Notes: generated from the sequence alone by a model not told the origin. A stretch of 64,000 nt of DNA from Caldilineales bacterium (GCA_024102915.1 JAGFJG010000016.1:22263-86262); one strand, 5' to 3'; shown: positions 30,409 through 63,274, numbered from the stretch's first letter. Made by a program: numbers and translations.

Positions 30409-30453
30409 TCGTTCACTCCTTCAGGGATTTTCACTCGACAACGTGCGTGTGAT

Positions 30454-30523: not shown

Positions 30524-30551
30524 ACAAGGTTAGCAGCCCTCACCCCTGCGG

Positions 30552-45800: not shown

Positions 45801-46115
45801 GCGGTCGCCACGGAAGGGCCGGGGATCGATGCTCTCGAACAACAGGTGCTGGCCCGTGCGATCGTAAATTTTGACCGTCTCGAAATGTTCCTGTTCGGTG
45901 ACGATGCTGCTGGGGTCTGGCAGGTCACGCGTGAAGTAAACATAGACGCCGCCCGCCACAGCGGCGGCAGCGGCTGTCGATACAAGTGTGAGAATCAAAG
46001 CTGCCACCAGGGCGATCGCCGTAATGCGGGCGACAGTCACCCAGCCTGGGGTGCGGCTGGCTTCCGCCCGGCGACGAATACGCCTGGTGATCATGATGCG
46101 AGTTGAACGATTCAT
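42861..46115 (-). CDS. Class A penicillin-binding protein (PBP1A: glycosyltransferase plus transpeptidase) with a long C-terminal Ig-like extension
   Basis: GT51 motifs EDRSFWTNPGVNPRG, GASSITQQL and RKIKEAL. Transpeptidase motifs SSFKP (SxxK), SYN (SxN) and KTGTT. One N-terminal TM helix. Start placed at ATG 46115; the track begins at TTG 46136. Confidence 0.85.
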   Translation of the reverse strand: MNRSTRIMITRRIRRRAEASRTPGWVTVARITAIALVAALILTLVSTAAAAAVAGGVYVYFTRDLPDPSSIVTEQEHFETVKIYDRTGQHLLFESIDPRPFRGDRTYMALDEISPYLINATVALEDRSFWTNPGVNPRGIARAFVQNVQGGQIQGASSITQQLIKQNFFTLEEQYERSYTRKIKEALMAVELTNQFSKEQILEWYLNNNFYGNFSYGIESASQIYFGKSASEIDLAEASMLAALPQFPGLNPIQAPEDAKRRQGKVLTSMVEAGYITQEQADAAFAEELQVRESALERFDIDIAPHFALYALEEVKRKFNTPEDPFFIWRNGLTVITTLDVDMQEKVACIARQRIAHVNGENPDLPGCEKLEPAEGIRVIKNDDEAKVSNAAAVVLDAKTGEILAMLGSLDYNNAEIDGEVNIALADRQPGSSFKPLTYLTGFSQGLNAATAVMDVRQVFPDAVEPYTPENYDRNYHGVVSLRDALQRSYNIPAVWVMNQVGVKNVVNMAHRMGITSLNKDYYGLSLTLGGGEVKLLDMAYVFATLANNGVMKGEAIAEENLRPGYRTLDPVSVLEVRDRTGSILYKYDGPDELRVISPQLGYLMDNILSDPAPRPAAFGIYSRYLQLPDRPIIAKTGTTNDYRDSWTLGASPQIAVGVWVGNADNAPMDRISGSVGAAPIFYDIMEAAHEGMPVEGWEEPEGMVRKTVCVDSGLLPTDLCQRRKTELFIAGTEPTTYDNVYQVFEINRENGRLATPYTPPELIERRVYRVYPPVAADWANEQAEAGNLELPPREFDDTYGAVFTSEEVAIAQPAPFSYVKGGFDILGNARNGDFRLYQLHFGQGLQPQNWQQIGPDHYNQVDRGPLEYWDTTGLNGPFTLRLSVIENSGNVRQNAIPLTVDNDPPTVNMIGPANGRTYVMEDDEWVNLNALATDDWSMDKVVFYLDDSPIVTTTVAPYNARWTIKMVDRPPSLAEGEVRATEIITNADGTVTAQEKIVSSVTVDPNEPNRVIKTFDNGFGIIHDSGGYTETHVFKAVAFDTAGNEQESEEVRIFVQHEKDKGPKPRAALDPPKVALLPQRRSF

Positions 46116-46249
46116 TCGTAGGTGATATCCGGACAAGGTTAAGGGCGGTGGTAAGACCGCCCTTTTGATGCGAACGCTTATTCTAGCACGGCGCTCGCGT
46201 CGGCGGCAAAGCCGATCTCAATACGCTGCGACCGATGTCGGGGTTCCCC

Positions 46250-46470: not shown

Positions 46471-48054
46471 TTAGTTGGTCAGCACAGGCGCCAGCTTGTG
46501 GCATTCCGTACAGGCTTCCGCCGGAAATCCCTCGGTCACATGGAATTCGGTGTAGGGGCGCAGACCGTCGGGGCCATGACAGTTGAGACATTGGCCGATG
46601 CGCTGATCATCCAGCGGGTGCGGGATGCGCGGCACGAATTCGGCATCCGGCGTTGGCGCTTCGATCACCGGCTCCGACGACTCTGTCGGTTCGGGCAAAT
46701 AGCTACGCAAACCCGGCGCATTCAATCCGGCGTAAACCCATTTGGTGCCATGACAAGCGCTGTTGGCGCAGAAGGAACTATTATCGGAGCCGCCGCGATT
46801 GTACGTGCTGTGACAGCCCACGCAGGTCTCATCGAACTCTTCGCGGTGGCGGGCCAACCAGTTGCTGTCCATGTGCGATTCTGGCTCCGTACCGCTTTCC
46901 AGGGCGATGACAGGGGCGGGCAGACCAGGACCGGCCACGCGCGGGATCGAATGGCAGATGTTGCATTCCAGGCGGATGGTTTCGCCCTCGGGGCTGACAT
47001 GTTTGCCGTCGTGGCAGCGGAAACAGCCGGGGTCTTCAAGATGCCCGACATTGTTGGGATGCGTCTCCCAACCGACCTGCATCTCCGGGAAGAAGGACTC
47101 CCCGGCCTGTCGCTTGATCTCCTCGATTGCTTTGGCGATCAGCGCTCGGTTTTGCTCGTAGTATTCAGGATAAGTCGTCTTGTACCACGTATCCAGATTC
47201 TCGACAGCGGCATTGAGAGTCTCATGGCTTTCATGTTTACTGGTGAGGATGTTGACTGCCTGGGCCCGGATAAAGGGAATGCTAGGGTCGATGATGCCCT
47301 TGGAAATCGCCTCATCGATGGAACGGTTGGGGTGTTCGAATTTGTGAGAGATGCGGTTATGGCAGTCGATACAATCCATCCGTCGCAGGTTTTGCTCATT
47401 CTCGGCCACATACTCAGGCGTGATATCCGATTCCAGATCGTAGTATTCGGTGACGCGCCCCTCAGCATCCACCTCGCGCACATAGGGGATATCCTGCTTG
47501 AGAGGATCGTTGGGCAGGAACCAGACCTCATTTTCGACATGCCAGTGGATGCCACGGCCCAGGCCCTCGCGGGAGCTGCCGCCGCCCGTTTTCAGGGCGA
47601 GAATCGTACGGCGTTCGGTGTTTCTTTCGTCATTGCCAAAACTTTGGATTTCCTTAACCGAATCATTGGAAAACTTGTCTGGGTTGTGACACTGTTCGCA
47701 GGTATCGCGGGCAGGGCGAAGATTCCTCACATAGATCGGGATCTCATAATCCTGGGTCAGTGCGTAGACAACGTGCCGCACTTCCATCGCCTTGCGCGGC
47801 AACGCCCGCAATACCGATTCCTGGCCCAGATGGCAATCGACGCAGGCCACGCGGGCGTGCGGCGAATGTTGGTAGGCGACATATTCTGGCGGCATCGTGT
47901 GACAGGTGGTGCCGCAAAACTCCGTGCTATTGGTGTATTCCCAGGCCGTCACGCCGCCCGCGAAGACGGCCATGCCTATGAGCAAGAGAATGAAGAGCGA
48001 GACGAGAGTGAGTTTCCAGTGTTCTCTCACCCAGCGGAAGAATCGGCGGATCAT
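46471..48054 (-). CDS. NapC/NirT-family membrane-anchored multihaem cytochrome c, extended (10 haem motifs)
   Basis: An N-terminal TM helix is followed by the NapC/NirT-like tetrahaem spacing. Eight CxxCH motifs are present (CVDCH, CEQCH, CIDCH, CFRCH, CNICH, CVGCH, CLNCH, CTECH). Two variants are also present: CGTTCH (Cx3CH) and CANSACH (Cx4CH). Confidence 0.8.
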   Translation of the reverse strand: MIRRFFRWVREHWKLTLVSLFILLLIGMAVFAGGVTAWEYTNSTEFCGTTCHTMPPEYVAYQHSPHARVACVDCHLGQESVLRALPRKAMEVRHVVYALTQDYEIPIYVRNLRPARDTCEQCHNPDKFSNDSVKEIQSFGNDERNTERRTILALKTGGGSSREGLGRGIHWHVENEVWFLPNDPLKQDIPYVREVDAEGRVTEYYDLESDITPEYVAENEQNLRRMDCIDCHNRISHKFEHPNRSIDEAISKGIIDPSIPFIRAQAVNILTSKHESHETLNAAVENLDTWYKTTYPEYYEQNRALIAKAIEEIKRQAGESFFPEMQVGWETHPNNVGHLEDPGCFRCHDGKHVSPEGETIRLECNICHSIPRVAGPGLPAPVIALESGTEPESHMDSNWLARHREEFDETCVGCHSTYNRGGSDNSSFCANSACHGTKWVYAGLNAPGLRSYLPEPTESSEPVIEAPTPDAEFVPRIPHPLDDQRIGQCLNCHGPDGLRPYTEFHVTEGFPAEACTECHKLAPVLTN

Positions 48055-48176: not shown

Positions 48177-49541
48177 CTAGTTGTTGGGCGCACCGGCGGC
48201 AATCCACAATCGAACACGTTCCAGTTGTTCAGGCGTAAGACGGGTGGGATGCGCTTCGACGGGCATAGACTGTACAAGCAACAGGCGGCTGTGATCAGGA
48301 TCGCCGGGAATAATGACAGGCCCGGAAGCTCCGCCCTGCATCAGGCTGCGATAGCTGATCAGGTTGAGTGAACTGCTGGTACCGTGGCAGGCGACGCACT
48401 TGGCATTGATGATGGGACGGATCGAGGATGCAAAACTGGGAATGTCCAACGCCTCGACAGTGGGGAGTTCGCCATTGTTCGTTTCGAGCAATACATGACA
48501 ACTCAGGCAGGTCTCATTCCCCAAAGCCAACTCGTCATGGAAAGGCGTAAAGGGTTGGATGGCGCCCAGGCCGTGACAGGAAAGACAGTCCTCGCGTCCT
48601 TCGCTGATGGCATGGGGAATTGGCGGCGCTGCTGACCGCCGAGCCGTCATTGCCTGCTCTGGATCAGGCGTGGGCGTGGGCGTCGGCGTCGCTCGCACGA
48701 ATGCCTCGCCTTGCTCCGGCAGAGGCGGCACGGTGGCAATGGCAGTCTGCTCGTAAGTGATGAAAAAGTAAAGGACGACGACGAAAATCAGGGTCGAGAC
48801 AAAAGCGAAGGGCAGATAAATGCGTTCACGGCGGCGGATCACCTCTCGCGGCGGCTCCGGTCGGACATCCCCGGCCTCGATTCGTTCCAGCTCGCGGCCA
48901 TGTTCGTGCTCCATTTGCTCGCGCGTGAGCTTGCCGGTGAAGATGCTGCGATTGAAGGTCTTGAGATGGACGTTGTACATATGCCAGACCACAATCGCCA
49001 GAAAAGCCAGGAGGGCTTCGCCGCCATGGGCGGCCTTCGCCGCCGGAATCCAACTGCCTGGGAAAAACCGGGTGATTGAGATCGGGTTCCAGAGCATGAA
49101 CCCAGTCAACACCATCACCCCTGTGCCCCAGACCACCGCCCAGTACTCCAGCTTTTCCTCAAAGCTATAGCGATCGTACTTGGGGCGATTACGGGCCAAC
49201 CCCAGATTGTAACGGATGGCATCGATGAAATCGATCACGTCCTGGAACGAAGGCAGCATAGCGGGCGAGACGCGGCGGACATAGAGCTTGTATCCCACAG
49301 CTAGAATGTGATAGGCGCTTTCGATGATCATGATGATGGCGGCGAGGCGATGGATGATCCGCACAGTCTCGACCCCGCCCATCCAATTGATCATCGTCAT
49401 CGCCCAGGGCGCGGGCGCGTATTTCTGGGGGATGCCGGTGATGACCAGAACCGTAAACGAAACCAACAGCAGCAGGTGTTCCACCCGATCCATGCGGGCG
49501 AAACGCACATAATACTCCTTCACTTTAGAATTGGCGCTCAT
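48177..49541 (-). CDS. FdnI/HydC-like b-type cytochrome membrane subunit fused to a C-terminal trihaem c domain
   Basis: N-terminal RFARMDRVEHLLLLVSFTVLVITG plus 4-5 helices with conserved His (IIH, AHGGE..WHMY), as in formate-dehydrogenase-gamma / Ni-Fe hydrogenase cytochrome b. The tail has CLSCH, CLSCH and CVACHG...GGASGPVIIPGDPDHSRLL, which resembles the Planctomycete-type cytochrome c domain. Confidence 0.75.
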   Translation of the reverse strand: MSANSKVKEYYVRFARMDRVEHLLLLVSFTVLVITGIPQKYAPAPWAMTMINWMGGVETVRIIHRLAAIIMIIESAYHILAVGYKLYVRRVSPAMLPSFQDVIDFIDAIRYNLGLARNRPKYDRYSFEEKLEYWAVVWGTGVMVLTGFMLWNPISITRFFPGSWIPAAKAAHGGEALLAFLAIVVWHMYNVHLKTFNRSIFTGKLTREQMEHEHGRELERIEAGDVRPEPPREVIRRRERIYLPFAFVSTLIFVVVLYFFITYEQTAIATVPPLPEQGEAFVRATPTPTPTPDPEQAMTARRSAAPPIPHAISEGREDCLSCHGLGAIQPFTPFHDELALGNETCLSCHVLLETNNGELPTVEALDIPSFASSIRPIINAKCVACHGTSSSLNLISYRSLMQGGASGPVIIPGDPDHSRLLLVQSMPVEAHPTRLTPEQLERVRLWIAAGAPNN

Positions 49542-50668
49542 GCTCCCTCCCCTCCGTGTCCCTGGTCATGTCCCCGACCAAAGATGCGGCCCACGATGCG
49601 CCGGATGGCATCGAGTGAGACGAATGCGATCATGAAACCGATCGTGCCGGGAATGATCAGCAGATAGAACAGGTTGATGTAGTAGACCAGGGGGTTGTGT
49701 TCTTTGTCCGGGATATAGTGGCTGGTCCAGGAGGTGGGGAAGTTGGCGTCGGCATCGGGATGGCAGCGCTGGCATGTCACCAGCAGATTCTCTTTGACGA
49801 CCAAGGCATTCGGATCATCGATCGCCTTGATATTGTGGATGCCATGACAGTCATAACAGACTGCCTTGTTGGTTAGCTGATCGGGTGACTGCCGCTCGAA
49901 TAGCGTGACCGTCGTGCCGTGGAAATCAGCCACATAGGTATTGAACACATCGGTCGAAATCCCATACTTCGACATCAATGCTTCATCGGCATGGCATTCG
50001 CCGCACAACTCCGGCGATTTGATGCGGAATTCGGCTGTGCGCGGGTCTTCCATGCTGTGCACCCCATGACAATCCACGCAAGTGGGCACATCCGGATTGC
50101 TCTCATCGAACAAAGCGGCGCCATGAACGCTTTCTTTATAATTATCGAAGATCGTGGCGTGGCACTGGCTGCAAGTGGCCGAAACCTGCTGGCGAGGTTC
50201 GTGGGGATTGCTTATATCATGGCTGCCATGACAATCGGTGCAAATGGCCGCATCGCGGTTGCCGCCCGCCAGCAACTTGGCATGCATCGAGTCCAGGGTG
50301 GCGTCGTATTGCTCGGAATGGCAGTTACGACAGGCCTCATAACGGTCGATCTGGAAGTCGCGGCGGCTGTTCGCATTGAGCGGCGGATGCGGATAACCGG
50401 AGATATTTGTATGGCAGGCGGTGCAGGTCAGGTGCTCTTGCCCGTGAACCGAATCACTGAAAACTTCGGCATCGACATAGAGCGACATCACCTCGCCATT
50501 CGCCAGTTCGATCTCGCGGTCGGGAATGCCATGACAGGCAAGACATGTATTGTTGGGATCGCCGCTCTGGGCTGGCGGGGCGGCTTGCGTTGTTGGAATT
50601 CCGGCAAGAAAAAGGAGCGCCAGGGCCAGGGTGAGGGCCGCGATGGGCAGGCGGGAAAGGAAGGGCAT
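49538..50668 (-). CDS. Nonahaem c-type cytochrome with signal peptide and C-terminal membrane anchor
   Basis: Nine CxxCH motifs (CLACH, CTACH, CRNCH, CTDCH, CSQCH, CVDCH, CGECH, CYDCH, CQRCH). Signal peptide ...AGIPTTQA. C-terminal helix LFYLLIIPGTIGFMIAFVSL. The stop overlaps the cytochrome b start by 4 nt. Confidence 0.85.
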   Translation of the reverse strand: MPFLSRLPIAALTLALALLFLAGIPTTQAAPPAQSGDPNNTCLACHGIPDREIELANGEVMSLYVDAEVFSDSVHGQEHLTCTACHTNISGYPHPPLNANSRRDFQIDRYEACRNCHSEQYDATLDSMHAKLLAGGNRDAAICTDCHGSHDISNPHEPRQQVSATCSQCHATIFDNYKESVHGAALFDESNPDVPTCVDCHGVHSMEDPRTAEFRIKSPELCGECHADEALMSKYGISTDVFNTYVADFHGTTVTLFERQSPDQLTNKAVCYDCHGIHNIKAIDDPNALVVKENLLVTCQRCHPDADANFPTSWTSHYIPDKEHNPLVYYINLFYLLIIPGTIGFMIAFVSLDAIRRIVGRIFGRGHDQGHGGEGA

Positions 50669-50765: not shown

Positions 50766-53700
50766 TTACTGTGGCCGGTAATACTTGATGCCGGCGCTGG
50801 GGTGGCAGGTGTTGCAGCGGTTGGTGTAACCCGTCTTCGTAACCTGACCGAAGGCGCCGGTGGCGTCCTGACCATGGGTGATGCCTATGTCGGCATAGGT
50901 CATGGCCGGATAATTGACGCCGTCAGCCGTCGATTTGACGCCGTGCGGATCGTGGCAGGTGACGCAGCTTGGCTTCGATTCTTTCGTGCCGTCGCCGTCG
51001 CTATCCCAGGCCAGTTGGTTCATGTCGAGATGATCCCAATGGATGTTGGCAGGCACATTACCGAAGTAAAAGCCCTGCGCCGACTCGTTTCGGAAACTCG
51101 TGATGACGGGATCGACCTGAAGAGGATATCCGGCAGGCGGCGGATTGGAATGCGTAAACAACGCGTTGCTGTATCCTGGCCCCATCCCCACCTGGTTGGG
51201 TTCCAGATGGCAGGTGTAGCACAGTGCGTAATTCGACTTCTGATAGGATTCAGAATCGGTGATTGGCACGTTCAGCCCGCCGAAATTAAGCCAGAGAGCC
51301 TGCTGGTAATTATCAGCAGCGGCCTTATAAGTTTGGGCTACGCCATCGAAATGGATGCTGTTCTGCCCCTTCTGATGGCAGGTTATGCAGGCGAAACCCT
51401 TACTGCCGTGGCCGGTGACGGCGAAGCCGTAAGTCGAACCATCGCCTACCACGTTGGGAGCGGGAACGCCCTTGACCATGGCCGGAGCGTTATCGTGGCA
51501 GCCTTCGCAGCTTAAAGCGCCGCCGCTCGACCACTTGCTCTTCGCCTCGGCCACGCCATTCACAGCGCCGCCAGCGCTATGGCAATCATTACAGACGGCA
51601 GTGCTCGACAACGTCTTGCCGTCGGCAAAATTGACCTTGCCGTTGACGTGATCTTCGCTGGGGTAGTTGCTGTGGCAGGTATTGCAAGACTGAATACCGG
51701 GGCCCTGGTTGGAGCTGTCGAAGTGGCGGGCGTGCGCGCCGCTGGTCAAATCCTGCGCATTGACGCCGTGACAGGTTCCGCATGTGCCGCTGGCCGCATT
51801 GCCCCAGAGCGGGGTGCTGAACTTCGGCGTGCCGGGTTGTTCCCGGCTGGCCGCGCCGTCGGAATGGCACAGGCTGTTGGCGCAGGTCAGATCATTCGAT
51901 CGGAAGGCCGAATTATCGATGCGCCCGAAAACGTCCTTGACATTCATCGCCACCTGTTTCTGGAAGTCAACATGATTGTCGATATTCGCCACGGCATCGT
52001 TATTGTTGTTCTGCGCCGTCACGCTATGGCATTCGAAACACCCGATGGAATCATCGCCCCGGTCTTTGTAGTTGGGCGTCAGGTGTTTTCCATGGCTGCC
52101 TGTGGTGAGATTGGTCTGATCATTATGGCATCCGGCACAGGTCAATGTTGCGCCTTCCGCCCAAACCGGATTCTTGTACACCAGTTGACCAGTGCTGGGT
52201 GCGCCGTTGCTGTGGCAACCCACCGTAGCACAGGTGCGCGACGTGCGATCATAGCTGCCGCCGGGATTCAGCGAATCGAAGAATACATCCTGGAACGAAG
52301 GCGGCGAGGTGATGTGACCGCTGTAACCGGGGGCGGCATCATTGTGGCAGGCGCTGCATTCCAGCCCATATTGGCCGGGATCATCACCCGCATGGATGAG
52401 ATGAGGAGTCAGATTTTCGTTGAGGGGATAATCATTGCGGCTGGCCGGCGGCGGCGGCGTGCCATGACAGGCGTCGCATCCGCCCACAGGCATAAACGCA
52501 TCCGCCGTTCCCGGAACGCCATCCGTTTCGTGCCTGTGGCAAGAGGTGCAGTCGGCGCCCTCGAAGTGGGGGTTCTCATTCCAATTGCTGGGATTGCGGT
52601 TGTGCGCAGTCGTGGTATGGCAGGTGGCGCAGAGATCGTTGGCGTTGTTGTCGCCCGGCGGATCAAAGCTGAACTCACCGGTCCGGGCCAGGAAAGCCAC
52701 CGGATTGTTGCGAATCTGAGGGCGAATGGCGCTCAGATTGCTGCTGCCATGCGCGTTGTGGCAATTGACGCATGTCTCCACAAAGGGGTCTTGTGTGGCG
52801 GCGTCGAAAGCCTGATTGCCGTGGGCGCTGACATCCATGCCCGCGCGGCTGGAGTCGGCATGACAGCGAGCGCACAATTCGTTTGGCGGAGCCAGCAGTC
52901 GAGGGTTGGACGCATCCGTAAAGTGGGGGGCGTCAGGATTGTGGCAGCTCTGGCAATCAACGCCAGACGCTGCGCCATGTCCATTGACCGCCCAGAACTG
53001 ATCGACCGCCGGTGCGGTCTTGCCGTGCAACACGCCGGGTTTGATGCTGTTATGGCAACCTGTGCAATCCTCGATCTCGCGGTTCGCTCGCCACGCCGAC
53101 TTGGCTTCCAATACGCCCTGCGGCGTGCCGTGGCAGTCATTGCAAACGGCAGTCTGATTCAAGTCCTTGTTGTCCGCCATGTTGACCCAGCCGTTGTAAT
53201 GGCCCTTGTCGGTCCAGTTCTTGACTTTGGGATGACAGGCGGTGCAATTATCCAGGCCAATGTCGGCCTGTTCGTGGCGGCTGTGGGCGCTATTCCCCGG
53301 CGGCGTACCATGACAAGCGCGGCAACTCTGCGGGTTGACGTAGAATCCATCCGTATGCGGATGACACCTGGTGCAATCCTGATCTTCGTAATGGGTCTTA
53401 TTGGCCGATGTGCTGTGATAATTGGTCGTCGTATGACAGGTCTCACAGATAGCCCATGATCCGCCGTCAAAGCGACGGCCATCAAATCGCACCTCTTTGC
53501 CAAAGATCGCCTTCTGGATAAGGGCGGCGTTGTCGGTTTTGGCGTGCGGTTCATGGCACGTTGCGCACTCATTCTGCTTATGCGTCAGAGCCGTGGGATG
53601 GCAGGAGTAGCAGGCGGTTTCCGGGTCGGTCACCAACACATGCGGCTGATGACAGGTCATGCAACTGCTGGTCGATGCACTGTAATTGCCATGCGGATTG

Positions 53701-53837
53701 AACGGAGCCCCTTGCAGCGCGGTGACGCGCCACAAATTACTGCTGCCGGCGTTCAACAATAGCAACAGCACAACGGTGAGGATCAGCAAAGGTGCGAACC
53801 TCAGTAGCTTGCTCACGAATCTAGGCATCGACTTCAT
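50766..53837 (-). CDS. Giant multihaem c-type cytochrome (28 haem motifs, 1023 aa), N-terminal membrane/signal anchor
   Basis: I count 26 CxxCH motifs plus 2 Cx4CH motifs (CATVGCH, CANSLCH). Each Cx4CH is followed by a CxxCH, as in the Geobacter CxxxxCH...CxxCH repeat family. Hydrophobic N-terminus LLRFAPLLILTVVLLLLL. Confidence 0.85.
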   Translation of the reverse strand: MKSMPRFVSKLLRFAPLLILTVVLLLLLNAGSSNLWRVTALQGAPFNPHGNYSASTSSCMTCHQPHVLVTDPETACYSCHPTALTHKQNECATCHEPHAKTDNAALIQKAIFGKEVRFDGRRFDGGSWAICETCHTTTNYHSTSANKTHYEDQDCTRCHPHTDGFYVNPQSCRACHGTPPGNSAHSRHEQADIGLDNCTACHPKVKNWTDKGHYNGWVNMADNKDLNQTAVCNDCHGTPQGVLEAKSAWRANREIEDCTGCHNSIKPGVLHGKTAPAVDQFWAVNGHGAASGVDCQSCHNPDAPHFTDASNPRLLAPPNELCARCHADSSRAGMDVSAHGNQAFDAATQDPFVETCVNCHNAHGSSNLSAIRPQIRNNPVAFLARTGEFSFDPPGDNNANDLCATCHTTTAHNRNPSNWNENPHFEGADCTSCHRHETDGVPGTADAFMPVGGCDACHGTPPPPASRNDYPLNENLTPHLIHAGDDPGQYGLECSACHNDAAPGYSGHITSPPSFQDVFFDSLNPGGSYDRTSRTCATVGCHSNGAPSTGQLVYKNPVWAEGATLTCAGCHNDQTNLTTGSHGKHLTPNYKDRGDDSIGCFECHSVTAQNNNNDAVANIDNHVDFQKQVAMNVKDVFGRIDNSAFRSNDLTCANSLCHSDGAASREQPGTPKFSTPLWGNAASGTCGTCHGVNAQDLTSGAHARHFDSSNQGPGIQSCNTCHSNYPSEDHVNGKVNFADGKTLSSTAVCNDCHSAGGAVNGVAEAKSKWSSGGALSCEGCHDNAPAMVKGVPAPNVVGDGSTYGFAVTGHGSKGFACITCHQKGQNSIHFDGVAQTYKAAADNYQQALWLNFGGLNVPITDSESYQKSNYALCYTCHLEPNQVGMGPGYSNALFTHSNPPPAGYPLQVDPVITSFRNESAQGFYFGNVPANIHWDHLDMNQLAWDSDGDGTKESKPSCVTCHDPHGVKSTADGVNYPAMTYADIGITHGQDATGAFGQVTKTGYTNRCNTCHPSAGIKYYRPQ

Positions 53838-53843
53838 CGTGGG

Positions 53844-55604
53844 CTATCTCCGTGCGGTGGGTGGGGAGGAGGGAGCCTGGAATGAGTGGCACTCGATACA
53901 GAGGGCGTCGCCCGCTGCTCTCAGGTCAAAGTCATGCTGCGTGCCGTGCGGGCTGTGGCAGCTTACACAGGACAGTCCCTCTCCGATGACGGGATGGAAA
54001 CCGTGCGGCAAACCGCTATGGCAGGATTCGCAGAGGGCGTTGGTGCGATTTTTCAGCAGGCCATCGATGTTGCCGCTATGGGCGTTGTGGCAGGCGGCGC
54101 ATTGCTCGCGCAATTGGGTGGAATGTTTGCTGTTGGCGAATGTGGCGGCCTGGCCGCTATGGCATTCGCCGCACAACTGCCGCGCCGAAGTCTGCAACAA
54201 ATCCGGGTGACTGCTGCTGTGCGATACATGGCAGGATGTACAATCCCCGGAAGCGACCGGCTGATGTTTGATAGCGCCCTGTTGCAAGTCATGGCAGTCG
54301 GTGCAGATATTGCTTGCCACCGCCGCCAGGGTCGTTCTGCTCTTGCCGTGGAATTCGGTGTGGCACTGTGCGCAATCGCCCGCGGCCACCGGTTCGTGCG
54401 TGCTGCCGGATGAAGCCAGCACGATATCGCTATGACATTCGACGCAGGTCTCGGCCAACTGCGTTCCCGAAGTTTTCGGCTCGTGCGGCGAATGGCAGGA
54501 GGTGCAGGATGGCAGTTTGTCGGCGGAATGATTGGCGAACGTATGCTGCGTGTCGAACTGCTCGGTGTGGCAGGTCTTGCAGATCGCATCCTCCGACTGC
54601 ACCAGGAGGTTGGCGTTGTTGCTGCCATGCCCATCGTGGCAAAGCAGACATTCACCCACGGCCAGGCTGGGATGCGGTTGGCTCACCATCTGCCCGTGAT
54701 CTTGATGGCATTCGTTACAAGATGCCGCCTGGGTCTCGGCCAGCAAGGGTGCATCCGGCCCCTGGTGGAATCCGCCATGACAATCAGAGCACTTGCCTTC
54801 GGCAAATGGCTGGTGCGGATGACTGAAGCTGTCCGGCTCCGGCAGATCGGTATGGCATTGTTCGCAGGCTTCCCGGTCCAGCGTCATCTCTGAGGGTGGA
54901 TGGGGGTCGTGCGGATCATGGCATAGGCTGCACTGGATGTTTTCATCCTGGGCATGGCTGGCGAAGCTAATGGACGGATCCGTCTGATCGGTATGGCAGG
55001 TTCCGCACAATTTCTGCTGAGGCTGGCGCAGGATAGCGGCATTGTCGGAACCATGCGACACATGGCAAAGATTACACTCGCCCGCGGCCAGGTCGGGATG
55101 CGGTTGATCGATCTCGCCACCCAAATCCTTGTGACACTCATTGCAAGCGTCATTGACATTCGTGACCATGAGCGCGGGATAGGCGCTGGCGTGGGGATTA
55201 TGGCAGGAGGTGCAATCCCCGCGGGCGAATGGCTGGTGCGGGTGACTGACCGGCGATTCGGGATCGGGCAAATCCTGCCAGTGACAATCCCGGCAAACAG
55301 CATCCTGCGTCCCCCACAACTGTTTTGGATCCGACCCGCTGAGATCATGGCACGCGCCACAGGCCCCATCCCCAAACGGCGGATGCACGTAATCCAGGCT
55401 ATCCAAAGGCGCTGGACCCAAACCCGCCGCGATCGCATCAGCTGGCGGCGTGGGCGTGAAAAAGGGCGTCGGCGTGGGTGTGGGCGTCCCTTCCGGCCCG
55501 GAATCGCGACGACAGCTATTGAGGACGAGGATCGCCAGGATTAATAGCGCTGTCAGAGCTGCAATAGGAAGAAGGCGGCGCCAGCGCTGCGAGTGCAATG
55601 TCAT
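53844..55604 (-). CDS. 22-haem c-type cytochrome, probable lipoprotein with Pro/Thr linker (polymer of c7/c3-like modules)
   Basis: 22 CxxCH motifs. N-terminal LLILAILVLNSC is a lipobox-like Cys, followed by GTPTPTPTPFFTPTPP. The unit HP(H/D)xP(F/L)AxGxCxxCHxxH...CxxCH recurs about 7-8 times. Confidence 0.85.
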   Translation of the reverse strand: MTLHSQRWRRLLPIAALTALLILAILVLNSCRRDSGPEGTPTPTPTPFFTPTPPADAIAAGLGPAPLDSLDYVHPPFGDGACGACHDLSGSDPKQLWGTQDAVCRDCHWQDLPDPESPVSHPHQPFARGDCTSCHNPHASAYPALMVTNVNDACNECHKDLGGEIDQPHPDLAAGECNLCHVSHGSDNAAILRQPQQKLCGTCHTDQTDPSISFASHAQDENIQCSLCHDPHDPHPPSEMTLDREACEQCHTDLPEPDSFSHPHQPFAEGKCSDCHGGFHQGPDAPLLAETQAASCNECHQDHGQMVSQPHPSLAVGECLLCHDGHGSNNANLLVQSEDAICKTCHTEQFDTQHTFANHSADKLPSCTSCHSPHEPKTSGTQLAETCVECHSDIVLASSGSTHEPVAAGDCAQCHTEFHGKSRTTLAAVASNICTDCHDLQQGAIKHQPVASGDCTSCHVSHSSSHPDLLQTSARQLCGECHSGQAATFANSKHSTQLREQCAACHNAHSGNIDGLLKNRTNALCESCHSGLPHGFHPVIGEGLSCVSCHSPHGTQHDFDLRAAGDALCIECHSFQAPSSPPTARR

Positions 55605-55948: not shown

Positions 55949-56416
55949 GTGAAAGACCCAGTTCAGATTTTCAACAACGAGCAGAAAACCGATCGTCGTG
56001 GATTCCTGAAGCTTTTGTTGGGTTTTTCCGGGCTGGTCACAGCCGTTGGCGTTCTCACGCCCGTGATCGGCTATTTGTGGCCGCCTAAGCAGGCGTCGAC
56101 AGTAGGCGCTGGCCGGGTGCCGGTAGGATCGACCGAAGAATTTCCTGTGGGGCAGGGCAAGGTTGTGCCGGTGGATGGCAAACCAGTGATAATTGTAAAC
56201 ACAGATCAAGGCGGATTAACCGCCTACTCAGCCGTCTGCACGCATTTGGGCTGCGTTGTGGAATGGGACGATAGAAGGCAATTCATTCTTTGCCCCTGCC
56301 ATGATGGACGATTCAACGCCATCAATGGCGCTGTAATCTCTGGCCCGCCACCCACGCCTCTGCCTGAATTGCCCCTCGTCGTGGAGCAGGATACCGTTTA
56401 CGTCTCACCCGCCTAA
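55949..56416 (+). CDS. Rieske [2Fe-2S] subunit with twin-arginine signal
   Basis: GTG start with GGAGG 8 nt upstream. Tat motif DRRGFLKLLLG. Cluster boxes CTHLGC and CPCHDGRF. Confidence 0.9.
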   Translation: MKDPVQIFNNEQKTDRRGFLKLLLGFSGLVTAVGVLTPVIGYLWPPKQASTVGAGRVPVGSTEEFPVGQGKVVPVDGKPVIIVNTDQGGLTAYSAVCTHLGCVVEWDDRRQFILCPCHDGRFNAINGAVISGPPPTPLPELPLVVEQDTVYVSPA

Positions 56417-56445
56417 ATCTCATCGATCAATTCGCAGGAGGCGAC

Positions 56446-57507
56446 ATGGAGGCTAAGAAATCGAGCTTTAACCGGATGTGGGATTGGGTGGATACACGTT
56501 ACCGTGCCAATGAACTGATCCAGGCGCTGCTTCACGTCGAGATCCCGCGCTCGGCCAAAACTTTCTATTTCGGCGGGATCACACTCTTCTTTTTCATCGT
56601 CCAAGCCGCAACCGGCATCCTGCTGTCTATTTACTATCAGCCATCGCCCGATTCAGCTTTTAACAGCATTCTTTTCATTATGAATAACGTGCGCTTCGGC
56701 TGGCTGATCCGCAGCATTCACGCCTGGAGCGCCAATCTCATGGTGCTGTTCTGCGTACTGCATCTGCTGCGCATTTTCTTCCAGGCAGCTTATAAGAAGC
56801 CCAGAGAGATGACGTGGGTATTTGGCGTAGTCCTGTTGGGCGTAACCCTGGTGTTCGGTTTCACAGGCTATCTCTTGCCCTGGGACCAACGGGCTTACTG
56901 GGCGACAGTGGTAGGAAGCGAGATCGCCGGGGCGTTGCCCATCGTGGGCGGGCAACTGCTCACCTTCCTGCGCGGCGGCGCTGACATCACCGCAGCAACC
57001 CTGACCCGATTTTTCGGCATCCATGTACTCATACTCCCGGTTACTCTGGCGCTGGTGCTGGTCATCCATATCACGATGGTGCACCAACAGGGCCTTGCTG
57101 ACCCCAAACGTGAAAAAGTGGATGACCAGTCGCGCAAAAAGAGGCTCCTGCCTTTCTTCCCGAATTATGTACTCGATGAAATGATCGCCTGGTATCTGAT
57201 GCTGGCCGGATTAATCGTACTGGCATCCGTTTTCCCCGGCGGATTGGAGGAACCGGCCGACCCCCTGCGTACGCCCGAACACACAAAACCGGAATGGTAT
57301 TTTCTTTTCCTCTACCAGGCCTTGAAAGTAGTGCCTCGCATCATCGGCGTCACTTTGCCCATCATCGGCGGCATTCTCTTGTTATTACTGCCATTCATCG
57401 ATCGCAGCCCCTATGTCGAACTCAGGAAACGTCCTGTGGCTCTGGCGGTGGGCGTTATCTGCGTGGCTGGCATTGTCGGATTCACGATATGGGGCTGGCT
57501 AAGCTAG
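56446..57507 (+). CDS. Cytochrome b, fused b6 plus subunit-IV type
   Basis: AGGAGG RBS. Haem ligands are spaced H-x13-H (IHAWSANLMVLFCVLH) and H-x14-H (IHVLILPVTLALVLVIH), which is the b6 pattern. The PEWY motif (KPEWYFLFLYQ) sits in the subunit-IV-like C-terminal part. Confidence 0.9.
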   Translation: MEAKKSSFNRMWDWVDTRYRANELIQALLHVEIPRSAKTFYFGGITLFFFIVQAATGILLSIYYQPSPDSAFNSILFIMNNVRFGWLIRSIHAWSANLMVLFCVLHLLRIFFQAAYKKPREMTWVFGVVLLGVTLVFGFTGYLLPWDQRAYWATVVGSEIAGALPIVGGQLLTFLRGGADITAATLTRFFGIHVLILPVTLALVLVIHITMVHQQGLADPKREKVDDQSRKKRLLPFFPNYVLDEMIAWYLMLAGLIVLASVFPGGLEEPADPLRTPEHTKPEWYFLFLYQALKVVPRIIGVTLPIIGGILLLLLPFIDRSPYVELRKRPVALAVGVICVAGIVGFTIWGWLS

Positions 57508-57523
57508 CACAGGGAGCAATGTC

Positions 57524-59476
57524 ATGAACCATCGGCTTCGCACTCGCCTGCTTATCCTATCGGTGCTGCTGATTGCCGCCGGTATCGCATCGACCCTGAC
57601 GCTGGCGCAAGGCACGCCCCCAACGATCCCGCATCCGCTCAAGAATTACCGCGGCTGCCTGGTTTGCCACGGCACGGGATTGGCCAGCGCGCCCCAGGTC
57701 CCCGACAGCCATGATGGCTTCGAAAATGAAATCTGCACTTCGTGTCACCTGACCGGCGAAGAGGCGGCCGAGCAAAGCGGCGCTGCGGCTGCGGGCCCAG
57801 GCCCAGAGCAGATTCCGCATCCCATTGAGGGGCGCGAGAACTGTGTGCAGTGCCATCAACCTGCCGAGGGCGGTGAAATCATCCCCGCCGCCGCGGGTGC
57901 GCCTGCGATACCACACACTTTGGAAGGTCACGATAAATGCCTGGCCTGCCATCAGGAAGGCGTGGGCGGCGCACCTCAAATGCCTGACGACCACGCCGGG
58001 CGCACAGAAGAGATTTGTCAGGCCTGTCATCAGCCTGGTGGCACGATGACAGTTGGTGGAAGCGGTGAAGGCGGAGCGCCCAACATCCCTCACACACTGG
58101 TGGGGCGAGATGATTGTTTGGGTTGCCACGAACAGGGGTTCGGCGGCGCACCCCAAATCCCTGACGACCATGCCGGGCGCAGCAATGACATCTGCCAGGC
58201 CTGTCACCAATCCACCGAAGCAGCGCCTGAGGCAGCGGAACCGATCGCCAGCGGCCCCATCCCCACGCCCATTCCCCACCCGCCGGTACAGGACACGGAT
58301 TCCTGCGTAGCCTGCCACGAGGCATTGGAAGGAGCGCAGGGGCAGGTGACCGCCGATTGGGCGATGAGCATCCATGCCGAGCGTGATGTCTCTTGCGCGG
58401 ATTGCCACGGCGGCGACCCCACTGCCTCTACCGTCAATGAATCAATGGACCCGGCAGCGGGTTATATCGGCGCTCCTGATAAAGCTGACATTCCAGCACT
58501 GTGCGCCAGTTGTCACGCCGACGTGAATTTAATGCGCCAATATGATCTGCCCACCGACCAGTGGGCCAAGTATCAGGAAAGCATCCACGGCATCCAGCTT
58601 GCCCGCGGCGATGAGAAGGTCACGACCTGTTACGATTGCCACGGCGGGCATAAAATCCTCAAGGCCAATGACCCGGCTTCCACGGTTTATGCCAGTAATG
58701 TGCCAGCATTGTGCGCCGGATGCCATTCTGATCAGGAATTGATGCGGCCTTATGGCATCCCCACCGACCAGTATGACCTCTACCGTGAAAGTGTGCACGG
58801 CATCGCTCTGCTCGATCATCAGGATTTCCGGGCGCCCAATTGCGCCACCTGTCATGGCACCCACGGGGCTGCGCCTCCGGGTTTCAATGAGGTGAGCAAT
58901 GTCTGCGGAAGCTGCCATTCCGCCACGCAAGAACATTATCTGCAAAGCGCCCACGCCAATGTCGAGGGCGGCCCTGAATGCGTGACCTGCCATGGCCGCT
59001 ATGATGTGGGCGTGCCCGACGACTCGATGTATCTGGGTTCAGAGCCGCGACACTGTGGTTCGTGTCATCCCGAAGACAGCCCGGAAGGCCAGATCGTTCA
59101 ATCAATCTATGACAATATCACGCAAGCGGACGCAGCTTACGAGGAAGCAGAAAACCGGGTGGAAGGGGTGAAACGCCTGGGCATGCTTGTATTGGACGAG
59201 GAGGGCCGCTTGCAGGAATCGAATACAAAACTGATCACGGCGCGGGCTTTGCAGCATACCACCGACCTGGCAACGGTGAAGGAAAAGACCGACGAAGCGG
59301 CAAGCCTGGCGAATGAGGCCAAACAAGGCGCTGACTCCGCCGCCGCTGAAAACCTGTTCCGGCGGCAAGCGATGGTGGTCGCCGTCATCGCCATCGCCTT
59401 CGCCATCGGCGCTCTCTATCTATTGAAGCGAGAGCTAGATCGGCGGTTGGAACGCGAGGATGCCCAGGAGCAGTAA
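57524..59476 (+). CDS. 16-haem c-type cytochrome with signal peptide, coiled-coil and C-terminal membrane anchor (c subunit of the Rieske/cyt b complex by position)
   Basis: 16 CxxCH motifs. The N-terminal half holds about five IPHx(5-7)CxxCH modules, three of them in near-identical dihaem units (...IPHTL(E/V)G(H/R)D(K/D)CL(A/G)CH(Q/E)(E/Q)G(V/F)GGAPQ(M/I)PDDHAGR...ICQACHQ). C-terminal helix AMVVAVIAIAFAIGALYLL. Confidence 0.85.
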   Translation: MNHRLRTRLLILSVLLIAAGIASTLTLAQGTPPTIPHPLKNYRGCLVCHGTGLASAPQVPDSHDGFENEICTSCHLTGEEAAEQSGAAAAGPGPEQIPHPIEGRENCVQCHQPAEGGEIIPAAAGAPAIPHTLEGHDKCLACHQEGVGGAPQMPDDHAGRTEEICQACHQPGGTMTVGGSGEGGAPNIPHTLVGRDDCLGCHEQGFGGAPQIPDDHAGRSNDICQACHQSTEAAPEAAEPIASGPIPTPIPHPPVQDTDSCVACHEALEGAQGQVTADWAMSIHAERDVSCADCHGGDPTASTVNESMDPAAGYIGAPDKADIPALCASCHADVNLMRQYDLPTDQWAKYQESIHGIQLARGDEKVTTCYDCHGGHKILKANDPASTVYASNVPALCAGCHSDQELMRPYGIPTDQYDLYRESVHGIALLDHQDFRAPNCATCHGTHGAAPPGFNEVSNVCGSCHSATQEHYLQSAHANVEGGPECVTCHGRYDVGVPDDSMYLGSEPRHCGSCHPEDSPEGQIVQSIYDNITQADAAYEEAENRVEGVKRLGMLVLDEEGRLQESNTKLITARALQHTTDLATVKEKTDEAASLANEAKQGADSAAAENLFRRQAMVVAVIAIAFAIGALYLLKRELDRRLEREDAQEQ

Positions 59477-60492: not shown

Positions 60493-62694
60493 TTACTGGG
60501 GTCGGGTCTTGCCAGTGGTCAATCCATCGGCGTAGTCGGACATCTCCAGATCTTCGAGATTGTCGAAGAGAGCCTGACCGACGTACTTGTTGTTGTGAGC
60601 GAAAGCGCCTGGATCCTTCAGGAAGTACTGGTAATTGTAGGCTGCGCGCAGCAGGCGAGGCGTCCAGGTGCTATAGCGAGCGCCCGAACCATTGAACCAG
60701 TAAGGATAGCGGCTGCCATCGTAGACGATGTCGTCGGAAACCGGGTTGGCGGTGGCGTAGGTCTGCATGCCCGCGTAGAGTGCTGCTGCAAGTCCTTCCA
60801 ATTCGCCATTGACGCCTTCAGCGGTGTTGCCATCGCCATCGTAGTCAGGTGTGGTGGCCCAACGGATGTTCTTGAGATCATCGGGGCTGCCGAGCGGGCC
60901 GTGGCAGGCGGTGCAAGCCTGGTACTCGACCTCAAGTTCGTGCACATTGTGGCAGTCTTCGCAGGTTGCAAACATACTGCCGCCGAACGGATGCTTGTTC
61001 TGGCCGACGTAGGTCTTGCCTTCGAACTCGTAGATGCCGTTGGTGACATTGCCGAAGAGCGTAGCGCCCGCAGCGAAGTAGTGGACGTTGATGAAGCCCT
61101 GACCAGTGTCAAGATCATCATCACCGACACCGGCTGTGGCATCGTCGATCTGGCCGCCATAGGCGCGACCCTGGTGGCACTGGATACACAGGTTATTGTC
61201 CTTGTCGCCGCCCTTCTCCAGACTGACATCAGCGCCGTTCGGGAAGGTCACTTCATCGAACACCCAGCGGTCCGGCCAGGATTCGCCGTTATGACAGGTG
61301 GTGCACATCATGCCGTTGGCGGCTTCCTGGGTGATGCTGACGCCTTCTTTGACCAGGAAGGGAATGCCGTCGGCGCTATGGCATTTGCTGCAGCTTCCGG
61401 GCACTTCGTAGTCATCCCCGTCCCAATGCCGCCATGCTTCCTCGGAACCGGCGAAGTGGCCGGGGTCGATGCGATGGGCATTGCTCATGTCCACCTTATT
61501 GGTGATGGCCTCATTCAGATCGCCGATCGAATCATGCAGCAATTGGATGACGTACTTGCCATTGTGGGCGAACTTGCCGGGGTCCTTCTGACCAACCTGA
61601 TAGTTAAATGTCGCTTTCATCAGGCGAGCAGTATAGGCATTGTAGTTTACGGCGGGATCATCCTTTACGTTATCGCAGTTTGCATCGACGAACCAATAGG
61701 GATGGCTACTCGAATCGTAAACGATGCATTTCTGAGACACTTCCTCTGCATAATCCTGAATTGCTCCGTAAAGAAGCGCCTGTAAACCTGCGATCTCTTC
61801 GCCCACGCCTTCCTCGTCATTACCATCGCCGTCATAATCGGCCAGCGAGCCCATCATGCGCACCATATCGAAATCATCTGCTGATTCGACATCGGCGTGG
61901 CATTCCTGGCACTCCGTGAGCTTCAGTTCCAGCGTGTGCATGTCATGGCACTCGTAACACTGATCGTATTGTTCGACATGGCGGAAGTTGATATCGTAGC
62001 TCATGCCTTCATATTCATAGCCGCCATGCACCAGTGCGCCGTATTGCGTCGCCGCCGCAGCGAAGTAATGTATATTCTGGAAGGAAGCGGTTGGCTCGAC
62101 TGCGTCCACATCAGCAGTCATGCCCTTCCCTTCCAGATAGGTGTCAACCTGCGGTCCAGACGAACGTCCTTGATGGCATTCCATACAGCGGGATTCATCG
62201 CCCAGGTTCTCGATAGTAACGCCAGAGGGGAATTTGACGCTTGTCTTGTGCAGGGTGACGTCGTTGTGGCAGGCCACACATTCGACTGTAGACCCCACAG
62301 GAGGCGCTACTTCAACAGAGCCAGCGGCGCTGCCATCCGCGCCCAAGAAGTCCAGGTAGCCTGGCGTGCTGTGGCACTTGGCGCAGCTCGTTTGAACGAC
62401 GCCGGCATCATCCCAGTGCCGGAAAGCTTCAGCGTCATGGTCATTGTGCGGAGAATTCGCCCAACGATCCAGGAACGGCACTTCTACGGCCACACCCGTG
62501 CACGGTGATAACTGGTAGGGCATGAATAGTTTGACCGGCAGTTCTCCGCCTTGCAACGCCGGCCCTATCAGCGATGCTTGCGGACAAACTGGGTTGAGGT
62601 CAGGCGCAGCCGCTTGCGCAGAACCGCCGCTCACCACGAGCAGCAGGGCCAATGCAAGCGCCAAAGCGCCCAAAATCGTGTATCTTCCTTTCAT
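60493..62694 (-). CDS. Secreted decahaem c-type cytochrome built from two tandem pentahaem halves
   Basis: Start ATG 62694 (MKGRYTILGALALALALLLVVSGGSAQA) with AGGAGG upstream. There are 10 CxxCH motifs, 5 + 5. Both halves share WRHWD, SC(A/S)KCHS, CxxCHQGR, N(I/V)HYFAA, DYDGDGN, PYWF and KDPGxFAHNxKYV. Confidence 0.85.
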   Translation of the reverse strand: MKGRYTILGALALALALLLVVSGGSAQAAAPDLNPVCPQASLIGPALQGGELPVKLFMPYQLSPCTGVAVEVPFLDRWANSPHNDHDAEAFRHWDDAGVVQTSCAKCHSTPGYLDFLGADGSAAGSVEVAPPVGSTVECVACHNDVTLHKTSVKFPSGVTIENLGDESRCMECHQGRSSGPQVDTYLEGKGMTADVDAVEPTASFQNIHYFAAAATQYGALVHGGYEYEGMSYDINFRHVEQYDQCYECHDMHTLELKLTECQECHADVESADDFDMVRMMGSLADYDGDGNDEEGVGEEIAGLQALLYGAIQDYAEEVSQKCIVYDSSSHPYWFVDANCDNVKDDPAVNYNAYTARLMKATFNYQVGQKDPGKFAHNGKYVIQLLHDSIGDLNEAITNKVDMSNAHRIDPGHFAGSEEAWRHWDGDDYEVPGSCSKCHSADGIPFLVKEGVSITQEAANGMMCTTCHNGESWPDRWVFDEVTFPNGADVSLEKGGDKDNNLCIQCHQGRAYGGQIDDATAGVGDDDLDTGQGFINVHYFAAGATLFGNVTNGIYEFEGKTYVGQNKHPFGGSMFATCEDCHNVHELEVEYQACTACHGPLGSPDDLKNIRWATTPDYDGDGNTAEGVNGELEGLAAALYAGMQTYATANPVSDDIVYDGSRYPYWFNGSGARYSTWTPRLLRAAYNYQYFLKDPGAFAHNNKYVGQALFDNLEDLEMSDYADGLTTGKTRPQ

Positions 62695-63274
62695 TGCTAT
62701 TCCTCCTCTAAGTGAAAAAAGCAATGCAGCGATGGGGTGGATGCGGGGTGATTACCAATTGTGCAGCAGATGCAGCAAATACATCTTAGTGCACATCTCG
62801 TACTCCCCTTGTACAAATGTATACTAACATGATAGCAAGATTAATGGAAATCCGATATGATCTATGTCAGGTTAATCAAAAATAAATTTGGGTTCGTGGG
62901 ATGAGAGGACGACGATCGGGGGGCCGCAGGTCGGGAAACAGGGTGATGCCGAGTCGGGCAGGGTAGCGATGAACATTTAGCGAAAAATCACGCAATAGTC
63001 CGACAAAAAAGTGAATTCGTTCACCAAAACTGATCTAAGTCATATTCAAACCGCATTTGCAGCGCGAAAATAGAAGCGCTTGAAGTGTCGCAATCTCGCA
63101 TGGACGCTTTCTTCGCACGACCTTCTGGCATACCAACACCGGCCGGGCTGCGCCACAACGCTGGGGCTAACATCGCATCAGCCTAGCTGGATCATCATGG
63201 AGATGGATTGACGATCACCGGCTTCGGTCAGAGATTGGCAATCTGTCATTGCCGTGTTCAAAGGAGCAAACGTT

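Follow-up and report, generated by a model that had tools for sequence, protein, structure and literature searches.

A 28-haem c-type cytochrome with two conserved CxxxxCH motifs in a five-gene multihaem cytochrome operon of a Caldilineales bacterium

In this study, we analysed a 64,000-nt stretch of DNA (the window) from a Caldilineales bacterium (GCA_024102915.1 JAGFJG010000016.1:22263-86262), in which positions 50766..53837 of the minus strand encode a 1023-aa c-type cytochrome with 28 haem motifs, here called MHC28. The original prediction had given a 1023-aa open reading frame (ORF) at 50766-53837 without its strand; the ORF exists on the minus strand, while the plus-strand reading of the same interval is full of stops and holds no ORF. 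The gene starts at an ATG that lies 6 nt from the stop codon of the preceding gene, MHC22, and a GGAG is present 10 nt upstream, within the 3′ end of that gene. MHC28 contains 28 CH dipeptides, belonging to 26 CxxCH motifs and to CATVGCH (residue 536) and CANSLCH (residue 652), which are of the CxxxxCH (Cx4CH) form, and all of its 56 cysteines fall within these 28 motifs. CATVGCH is followed 31 residues later by CAGCH (residue 567) and CANSLCH 34 residues later by CGTCH (residue 686), so the predicted count of 28 motifs with two Cx4CH...CxxCH pairs was exact, and the predicted density of about one haem per 36 residues was measured as one per 36.5. In 5000 shuffled versions of MHC28 the mean number of CxxCH motifs was 0.19 and the maximum 3, and two Cx4CH motifs were reached in just 1.2% of the shuffles (n = 5000); the motif count is far above chance. 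Outside 46.4-62.7 kb, CxxCH was found in none of the checked window ORFs of at least 150 aa.

MHC28 scored 72.1 bits against TIGR01904 (curated cut-off 27) and 44.6 bits against PF09698 (curated cut-off 21.7), which bears out the CxxxxCH...CxxCH family named in the original prediction. The protein carries four copies of a trihaem unit in which CxxCHG(T)PP..H..H is followed by CxxCH, H.NG and a third haem site; the coordinates given here for parts of MHC28 are all on the minus strand. In unit A (residues 168-262; 53052..53336), which reads CxxCHGTPP..H..H, CxxCH, H.NG and AVCNDCH, all three motifs are canonical. Its paralogue, unit D (residues 682-781; 51495..51794), likewise has the canonical CNDCH instead of Cx4CH, and the two units are 46% identical and share AVCNDCH at the third site. 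Units B (residues 450-566; 52140..52490) and C (residues 563-685; 51783..52151), which are 30% identical, have Cx4CH at this position, the third site of B being CATVGCH (residues 536-542; nt 52212-52232) and that of C being CANSLCH (residues 652-658; nt 51864-51884). Taken singly, units B, C and D all passed the TIGR01904 cut-off (32.3, 31.0 and 34.0 bits, respectively), whereas unit A failed it (17.6 bits) and passed that of PF14522 Cytochrome_C7 (29.2 bits). When the Cx4CH motifs are aligned with the canonical motifs of units A and D, the second Cys and the His are in register and the first Cys stands two residues earlier, indicating that Cx4CH uses the same haem site as the canonical motif of the paralogous units.

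Both Cx4CH motifs are kept, approximately 116 residues apart, in 23 of 23 orthologues (within P0002-P0025) that span both sites, while a truncated orthologue (P0020) retains the first only; this conservation shows that the variant motifs are not chance occurrences. Haems at the two sites are predicted from the motif, and Cx4CH is known to bind haem c in class III (c3) cytochromes (PMC11492766). Like the Geobacter cytochromes of TIGR01904/PF09698, MHC28 shows the order Cx4CH, W, CxxCHG(PP) and H..H at a spacing of about 30 residues. It differs from the family in having two Cx4CH motifs in four units, where distant relatives, some of them annotated as Desulfuromonadaceae or Acidobacteria, carry up to 7-9, in being hosted by a member of the Chloroflexota without porin partners, and in adding an MtrA-like N-terminal chain and a C-terminal tetrahaem domain. 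Its identity to family members from outside the Chloroflexota is 23-30%. No member of the TIGR01904 family matched a solved structure in our PDB comparisons.

The sole hydrophobic stretch of MHC28 spans residues 6-37. Residues 1-40 (53718..53837) comprise a basic N-region, a hydrophobic core and a c-region of small residues (NAG/SS, VTA/L); the orthologues begin with MKR and 15-18 hydrophobic residues, continue with GG, GSG or xDA, and then reach QGAPFNPHG. We regard this N-terminus as probably a Sec signal peptide and possibly an uncleaved anchor. In natural fusion proteins, described below, the stretch is missing and a lipoprotein partner provides the anchor, which shows that the stretch is dispensable. 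The single N-terminal hydrophobic anchor of the original prediction is thus a single stretch, but one that looks like a signal peptide in the orthologues and is not needed for anchoring in the fusions.

Residues 49-366 (52740..53693) form an N-terminal haem chain that resembles MtrA/DmsE-type decahaem wires and c7/c3-type modules. The MtrA/DmsE model TIGR03508 scored 59.9 bits over residues 131-366, under its cut-off of 192.2, and Pfam Cytochrome_C7 scored 100 bits on the protein. A single-sequence search of the PDB with the whole of MHC28 gave nothing at E ≤ 1. A profile of 31 orthologues gave 21 hits, including 6R2Q_A (a 333-aa decahaem chain; E 5.8e-11, residues 49-210 and 277-346), 3OUQ (a GSU1996-type fragment; E 1.3e-7), 6I5B (E 7.7e-7), NrfH and MtrF; OmcS, OmcE and OmcZ were absent from these 21 hits, and residues 450-1023 had no match in the same search. 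We take 6R2Q chain A, which the PDB table labels differently, to be the MtrA decahaem protein of MtrCAB, and 6I5B, listed there as 'Uncharacterized protein', is presumably OcwA of Thermincola potens.

MHC28 shares with the MtrA/DmsE wires (TIGR03508; 6R2Q_A) an alignable region at residues 49-366 and the predicted character of a dense bis-His wire that would cross an envelope layer, but it scores below the family cut-off, has nearly three times the haems, and is encoded in a cluster without an MtrB-type beta-barrel. It resembles the GSU1996-type dodecahaem c7 chains (PF14522, TIGR04257; 3OUQ) in its serial c7-like trihaem units; however, these units carry the Cx4CH variant and the 'CxxCHG-PP..H..H' signature, MHC28 is much larger, and GSU1996 is a soluble periplasmic protein of a diderm. 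OcwA of T. potens, a multihaem cytochrome proposed to pass the wall without an outer-membrane porin, is a functional analogue, but MHC28 is not orthologous to it, the operons differ, the profile similarity is weak, and OcwA has nine haems, some with non-bis-His ligation. With OmcS, OmcE and OmcZ, MHC28 would share the character of extracellular bis-His haem chains; they are small polymerising subunits, whereas MHC28 is one very long polypeptide.

The C-terminal tetrahaem domain (residues 786-1023; 50769..51482) contains four haems, a nearly invariant Met and a WDSDGDG loop; it shows the highest conservation within MHC28 (54-73% identity in orthologues). No specific Pfam or NCBIfam model matched it in library scans. 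A word-indexed homologue search with the domain recovered two fragments only, and an exhaustive HMMER search took its place; among the representative clusters at 50% identity, 229 carried the domain. The relatives carry it at varied positions within cytochromes of 5-16 haems, some of which also have domains of the Laminin_G_3, F5/8 type C or Ig-like types, as is common in proteins exposed at the cell surface. The few named carriers belong to a Methanosarcinales archaeon metagenome-assembled genome (MAG), an uncultured archaeon, Planctomycetota and Chloroflexota. P0104, P0153 and related matches place the domain in archaeal proteins, and the form from the uncultured archaeon is a stand-alone 263-aa tetrahaem cytochrome, which hints that the tetrahaem module has been exchanged between archaeal and bacterial electron-transfer systems.

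AlphaFold2 modelling of this domain from 29 domain copies gave a predicted local distance difference test (pLDDT) score of 82.4 and a predicted template modelling (pTM) score of 0.79, and a Foldseek comparison of the model with the PDB, a method that may be insensitive for coil-rich haem proteins, gave no match (best E 1.1). A domain profile search gave weak matches to the tetrahaem cytochromes of photosynthetic reaction centres (E 5e-6), to the OmcE nanowire of Desulfuromonas soudanensis (9YUQ_N; E 6.5e-6, best stretch independent E-value (i-E) 0.047) and to Geobacter OmcE (7TFS_A; E 0.26). The first three haem motifs are spaced 56/85 residues apart, compared with approximately 56/87 in the printed 9YUQ_N alignment. 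Kinship with OmcE was nevertheless kept as a lead only, because the confident domain model had no PDB match and P0153, the stand-alone relative, had no OmcE match. For the nanowire cytochromes to which the original prediction had pointed, then, there was no significant match to OmcS or OmcZ, and the OmcE match was weak, confined to the last domain and not reproduced. The nearly invariant Met (PAMT, residue 979) aligns with a Met-bearing segment of the photosynthetic reaction-centre cytochromes and could be a His/Met ligand of the last haem, while the conserved WDSDxxG loop looks like a candidate cation site. Judging from the fusion order and the domains of its relatives, the tetrahaem domain is likely to be the distal outer tip of the protein.

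MHC28 is the second gene of a five-gene minus-strand operon whose order is MHC22, MHC28, MHC9, a cytochrome b561-type protein with three haems, and a NapC/NirT-like cytochrome, with gaps of 6, 97, -4 and 122 nt; together these genes encode 72 c-type haem motifs and a b-type cytochrome. MHC22 (53844..55604), directly upstream of MHC28, is a 586-aa, 22-haem protein with a lipobox (..VLNSC) followed by a Pro/Thr-rich (TPTPTP) linker. The lipobox Cys is its sole non-haem Cys, and both this Cys and the linker are kept in every full-length orthologue, where the lipobox reads LLSAC, LLAGC, LLGSC, ILSTC, LVAC, LLSSC or LSVGC; MHC22 is accordingly a predicted lipoprotein. MHC9 (49538..50668) is a cytochrome of 376 aa and nine haems that begins with a signal peptide and has a transmembrane helix at its C-terminus, and is syntenic, with 56-70% identity, in the loci that carry it. 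The next gene (48177..49541) encodes a cytochrome b561 (FdnI/HydC-like) membrane domain (PF01292, 43.4 bits; TIGR01583, E 7e-12) joined by a Pro/Thr linker to a 3-haem c-type domain, and its product is a candidate quinol oxidoreductase. The last gene (46471..48054) encodes a NapC/NirT-like membrane cytochrome with 10 haem motifs (PF03264, 51.7 bits; TIGR03153, E 1e-15), a candidate quinol dehydrogenase. Its motifs comprise eight CxxCH, a Cx3CH at the first haem (FCGTTCHTM), where the NapC family usually has CxxCHxM, and a Cx4CH (CANSACH); the Cx3CH and the Cx4CH are both kept in 11 of 11 orthologues spanning the two sites, and a shorter ORF in locus L011 is without the Cx3CH.

The last two proteins resemble ImcH and CbcL of Geobacter and CymA of Shewanella: the NapC-like protein begins with a NapC/NirT region, and the other joins a b561-type membrane domain to c-type haems. 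This likeness is one of general architecture and not of an alignment. They differ from ImcH and CbcL in their haem numbers (10 and 3 here), in the Cx3CH at the first haem of the NapC-like protein, and in giving no equivalog match. Pro/Thr-rich linkers (TPTPTPTP...) recur in the operon, at the join of the b561 and haem domains (48177-49541) and after the MHC22 lipobox (53844-55604), and recall the flexible tethers of Geobacter PgcA. A promoter and terminator scan of 45.9-60.6 kb was uninformative, since the counts equalled the shuffled expectation.

The search for homologues yielded 97 relatives of MHC28, several of whose orthologous members bear the NCBI name 'CxxxxCH/CxxCH domain-containing protein'. 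The 24 nearest ones, with 39-55% identity in the best local alignment, derive from MAGs of Chloroflexi, Caldilineae and Anaerolineae and from metagenome contigs. The orthologues fall into three length classes, with 28 haems, with 34 haems, and with 54 motifs in 1772-1777 aa. The 34-haem orthologues (P0002-P0009) carry a tandem duplication of about 227 aa, with six haems, after the position of window residue ~455 (nt ~52470), and the 28-haem form of the window may be ancestral, a deletion, or an assembly collapse of the repeat. The longest proteins (P0011, P0013 and P0017; 1772-1777 aa) are fusions of an MHC22-like and an MHC34-like part with an N-terminal lipobox; residues ~3-645 of the fusion align with full-length MHC22 and residues from ~561 to the end with MHC28 residues 47-1021. 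One of them adjoins NapC-like and cytochrome b genes. Because MHC22 and MHC28 are naturally fused, they would be expected to act as one physical unit, and the order within the fusion suggests that MHC22 sits nearest the membrane and that the C-terminal tetrahaem domain forms the distal end.

Nine loci, belonging to MAGs of Caldilineales, Anaerolineales and unclassified Chloroflexota, contain all five operon genes in this order, and several further loci, shorter or rearranged, have parts of the module. The partner proteins are 47-71% identical in the loci carrying them. A scan of species-representative genomes yielded no locus identical to that of the window; the nearest were from Caldilineales/Chloroflexota MAGs, with 50-54% best-segment identity, and L011 reached 67%. 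No porin or beta-barrel family was found in the module in the window or in the Pfam-annotated loci (L001, L053), where the annotated module genes all encode cytochromes, cytochrome b or Rieske proteins; loci without Pfam-annotated gene calls were searched for the window's own genes only.

A divergent operon on the plus strand (55949..59476) faces the five-gene operon across a shared 344-bp intergenic region. Its first gene encodes a Rieske protein (55949-56416), its second a cytochrome b6-like protein (56446-57507) and its third a 16-haem cytochrome that has a transmembrane helix at its C-terminus (57524-59476); together they make up a predicted bc-type complex with a multihaem wire as its c subunit. 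The b6-like protein scored 233.6 bits against the model of ExtP, from a selenite/tellurite-reduction operon, under the cut-off of 290. This divergent arrangement recurs in three independent loci (L001/L006, L007 and L014). On the minus strand at 60493..62724 lies the gene of a 743-aa, 10-haem cytochrome with four extra Cys, which also adjoins the module in L002, L004, L011 and L012; neither a PDB match nor a family could be assigned to it, and it may be a further or terminal component with non-haem domains.

These data suggest that MHC28 is probably a secreted, non-catalytic 28-haem segment of a multi-protein wire that would connect quinol with the cell exterior without a porin. Under this proposal its haems would all be bis-His ligated, possibly with one His/Met exception, and the protein would combine an MtrA-like haem chain at its N-terminus with four c7-like trihaem units and, at its C-terminus, a distinct tetrahaem domain. 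Bis-His ligation of all 28 haems is feasible because 30 non-motif His are conserved among the orthologues, together with one conserved Met. Quinol of the menaquinone pool would be oxidised at the NapC/NirT-like 10-haem protein, at the b561-like 3-haem protein, or at both, and the electrons would pass to membrane-tethered MHC9 and to the Pro/Thr-linked lipoprotein MHC22. The electrons would then hop from haem to haem along MHC22 and MHC28, through the multilayered and porin-free envelope of the Chloroflexota, and meet an insoluble or extracellular redox partner at the C-terminal tetrahaem domain; this partner may be an electrode, a partner cell, humics or Fe(III)/Mn(IV) oxides. The haem motifs, family membership, conserved variant motifs, ligand count, synteny, lipobox and fusion are observed, and from there we infer the localisation, the order of the proteins in this chain, the outward flow and the extended length.

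Solved wires (MtrA, GSU1996, OmcS) advance about 0.8-1 nm per haem. On that analogy the length of MHC28 would be at most ~22-28 nm, if its 28 haems stood in line, and that of MHC28 with MHC22 at most ~40-50 nm. The gene context fits an envelope-crossing conduit, as in the wall- or sheath-spanning wire of the original prediction, but a place for MHC28 as one segment among several proteins of a wire fits better than a wire that anchors itself. The envelope of one cultured Caldilineae member comprises cytoplasmic membrane, peptidoglycan, inner layer, shared outer layer and protein layer, and Chloroflexota are without BAM (beta-barrel assembly machinery) and lipopolysaccharide (LPS) genes (PMC13319060). 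A long porin-independent wire is plausible because of this multilayered envelope and the lack of BAM/LPS genes. As a more tentative extension, MHC22 and MHC28 might dock head to tail into one lipid-tethered wire of at least 50 haems and ~40-50 nm, reaching across the porin-free envelope of filamentous Chloroflexota with an undescribed tetrahaem tip; we consider this possible but somewhat doubtful. Domains of the tip type occur also in archaeal (Methanosarcinales-type) and planctomycete cytochromes, which we read as surface proteins.

Several points weigh against this proposal. The whole-protein AlphaFold2 model of MHC28 (31 sequences) was unreliable (pLDDT 52.5, pTM 0.34) and gave only noise in Foldseek, so a continuous linear haem chain is an assumption. 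Every orthologue found comes from a MAG or a metagenome contig and none from a cultured organism, and the envelope type is taken by analogy from the cultured Caldilineae member and not from this organism. Ardenticatena is the only Chloroflexota isolate shown to perform extracellular electron transfer (PMC5808234). The largest cytochrome of Ardenticatena maritima has seven haems, and the genus therefore offers no physiological precedent for the module. In a bioanode study, Anaerolineales with large multihaem cytochromes were mostly planktonic (PMC7399161). Finally, the direction of flow cannot be read from the sequence, and the Rieske/cytochrome b operon and the possible His/Met haem would also suit uptake of electrons.

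The same wire might indeed run in reverse: in lithotrophic or syntrophic uptake, Fe(II) minerals, cathodes or partner cells would supply electrons, which would reach the quinone pool or the Rieske/cytochrome b proteins. The recurrence of the divergent operon in L001/L006, L007 and L014 agrees with this, and the nearly invariant Met of the distal domain could give a higher-potential His/Met haem, although that ligation is itself a prediction. No Cyc2-type or other known Fe(II) oxidase was found within the window, and in Shewanella and Geobacter, proteins like the NapC/NirT-like and CbcL-like partners are chiefly known for oxidising quinol in outward pathways. Multihaem conduits can in general work in both directions, and Ardenticatena performs anodic as well as cathodic transfer (PMC5808234). 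On balance, we think uptake rather unlikely to be the function of the module.

It is improbable that the 70 or more haems of the operon serve as a charge store between membrane and wall, or as an electron bus between filament cells under a common outer layer, even though the haem content per operon is very high and three components are membrane-tethered. The polarity of the fusions and the relatives of the C-terminal domain that carry lectin-like domains point to an exposed distal end, and a capacitor would not require ordered modules conserved over more than 1000 residues. Caldilineae do form filaments, the cells of which share an outer layer (PMC13319060), but this morphology is not linked to the MAG analysed here.

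Very improbable, in our judgement, is a catalytic role, with a special haem of MHC28 or of its C-terminal domain as the site of nitrite, hydroxylamine, sulfite or selenite/tellurite reduction. No function is known for that domain and the neighbouring cytochrome b resembles ExtP, but the ExtP score is below its cut-off and belongs to another gene. Assignment to a known enzymatic multihaem family had been named in the original prediction as one of two refuting outcomes, the other being homologues that lack the variant motifs, and neither occurred; in library scans of MHC28 and its pieces there was no match to HAO, ONR, NrfA (PF02335) or MccA, the protein has neither a CxxCK nor a Cx15CH motif, and the 30 conserved distal His suffice for the 28 haems. 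That MHC28 is a nanowire subunit polymerising end to end through an OmcE-like C-terminal domain into micrometre-long filaments is hardly credible, because the weak profile matches and similar motif spacing to 9YUQ_N described above stand against a confident domain model (pLDDT 82) without a PDB fold match, the lack of an OmcE match in P0153 and of an OmcS, OmcZ or OmcE match to the whole protein, and the 4-8 haems of known nanowire subunits; OmcE itself is a tetrahaem protein, and the porin and beta-propeller genes that accompany omcE are absent from the module (bioRxiv 10.1101/2025.10.22.684050).

Other genes of the window were noted in passing. Directly downstream of the five-gene operon lies the gene of a 1091-aa class A penicillin-binding protein (42861-46136, minus strand) whose long C-terminal extension contains an Ig domain, Big_7. 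Beyond the cytochrome cluster, at the window edge, is an HdrC/QmoC-like 4Fe-4S dicluster protein (63254-63880, plus strand), for which all scores were below cut-offs. Three large genes stand in a row on the minus strand at 24229-32723; they encode a 902-aa FGE-sulfatase-domain protein with a weak NACHT match, a 1081-aa protein that joins a Ser/Thr protein kinase to PD40/WD40-like beta-propeller repeats, and a 723-aa PQQ-like beta-propeller protein. At 16209-19702 (plus strand) and 20734-22540 (minus strand) there are tandem MoeA-like molybdopterin molybdenumtransferases, the second of which is fused to a PBP-like domain, and then an electron-transfer flavoprotein alpha/beta pair. Scans of the window for tRNA and Rfam families found a single, unrelated tRNA-Thr.

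MHC28 belongs to a kind of protein that has already been surveyed. According to one study, the large multihaem cytochromes of Anaerolineales vary in haem number through gain or loss of segments, occur without porin-cytochrome complexes and are proposed to act in extracellular electron transfer (PMC7399161); according to another, Anaerolineae proteins with at least 20 haems match GSu_C4xC_C2xCH and are likewise proposed for extracellular electron transfer (bioRxiv 10.1101/2021.08.23.457424). MHC28 agrees with these proteins in phylum, Pfam family, variable haem number and the idea of porin-free electron transfer, but its organism groups with Caldilineales MAGs. We found in these two sources no description of the five-gene module, the lipoprotein partner, the fusion forms, the positional equivalence of Cx4CH and CxxCH, or the widespread C-terminal tetrahaem domain, for which no model exists in the libraries scanned. 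We regard these additions as useful increments and not as surprises.

How electrons pass through thick or multilayered envelopes that have no outer membrane or porin-cytochrome complexes is poorly understood, and mainly a few Firmicutes have been studied. Sediments, the subsurface and wastewater are rich in Chloroflexota, whose roles in iron and manganese cycling and in electrode biofilms have been inferred mostly from gene counts. The locus described here offers a compact, conserved and testable module, with two candidate quinol oxidoreductases, three tethered cytochromes, a predicted secreted segment of 28 haems, and fusions that indicate the order of assembly, and it draws attention to the TIGR01904 trihaem unit and the C-terminal tetrahaem domain, both of which are structurally uncharacterised. 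If the docked MHC22-MHC28 wire were real, it would represent a third architecture of extracellular electron transfer, beside porin-cytochrome complexes and polymerised nanowires. If the conduit model is true, it would allow extracellular electron transfer to be annotated in Chloroflexota MAGs more reliably than by counting haems.

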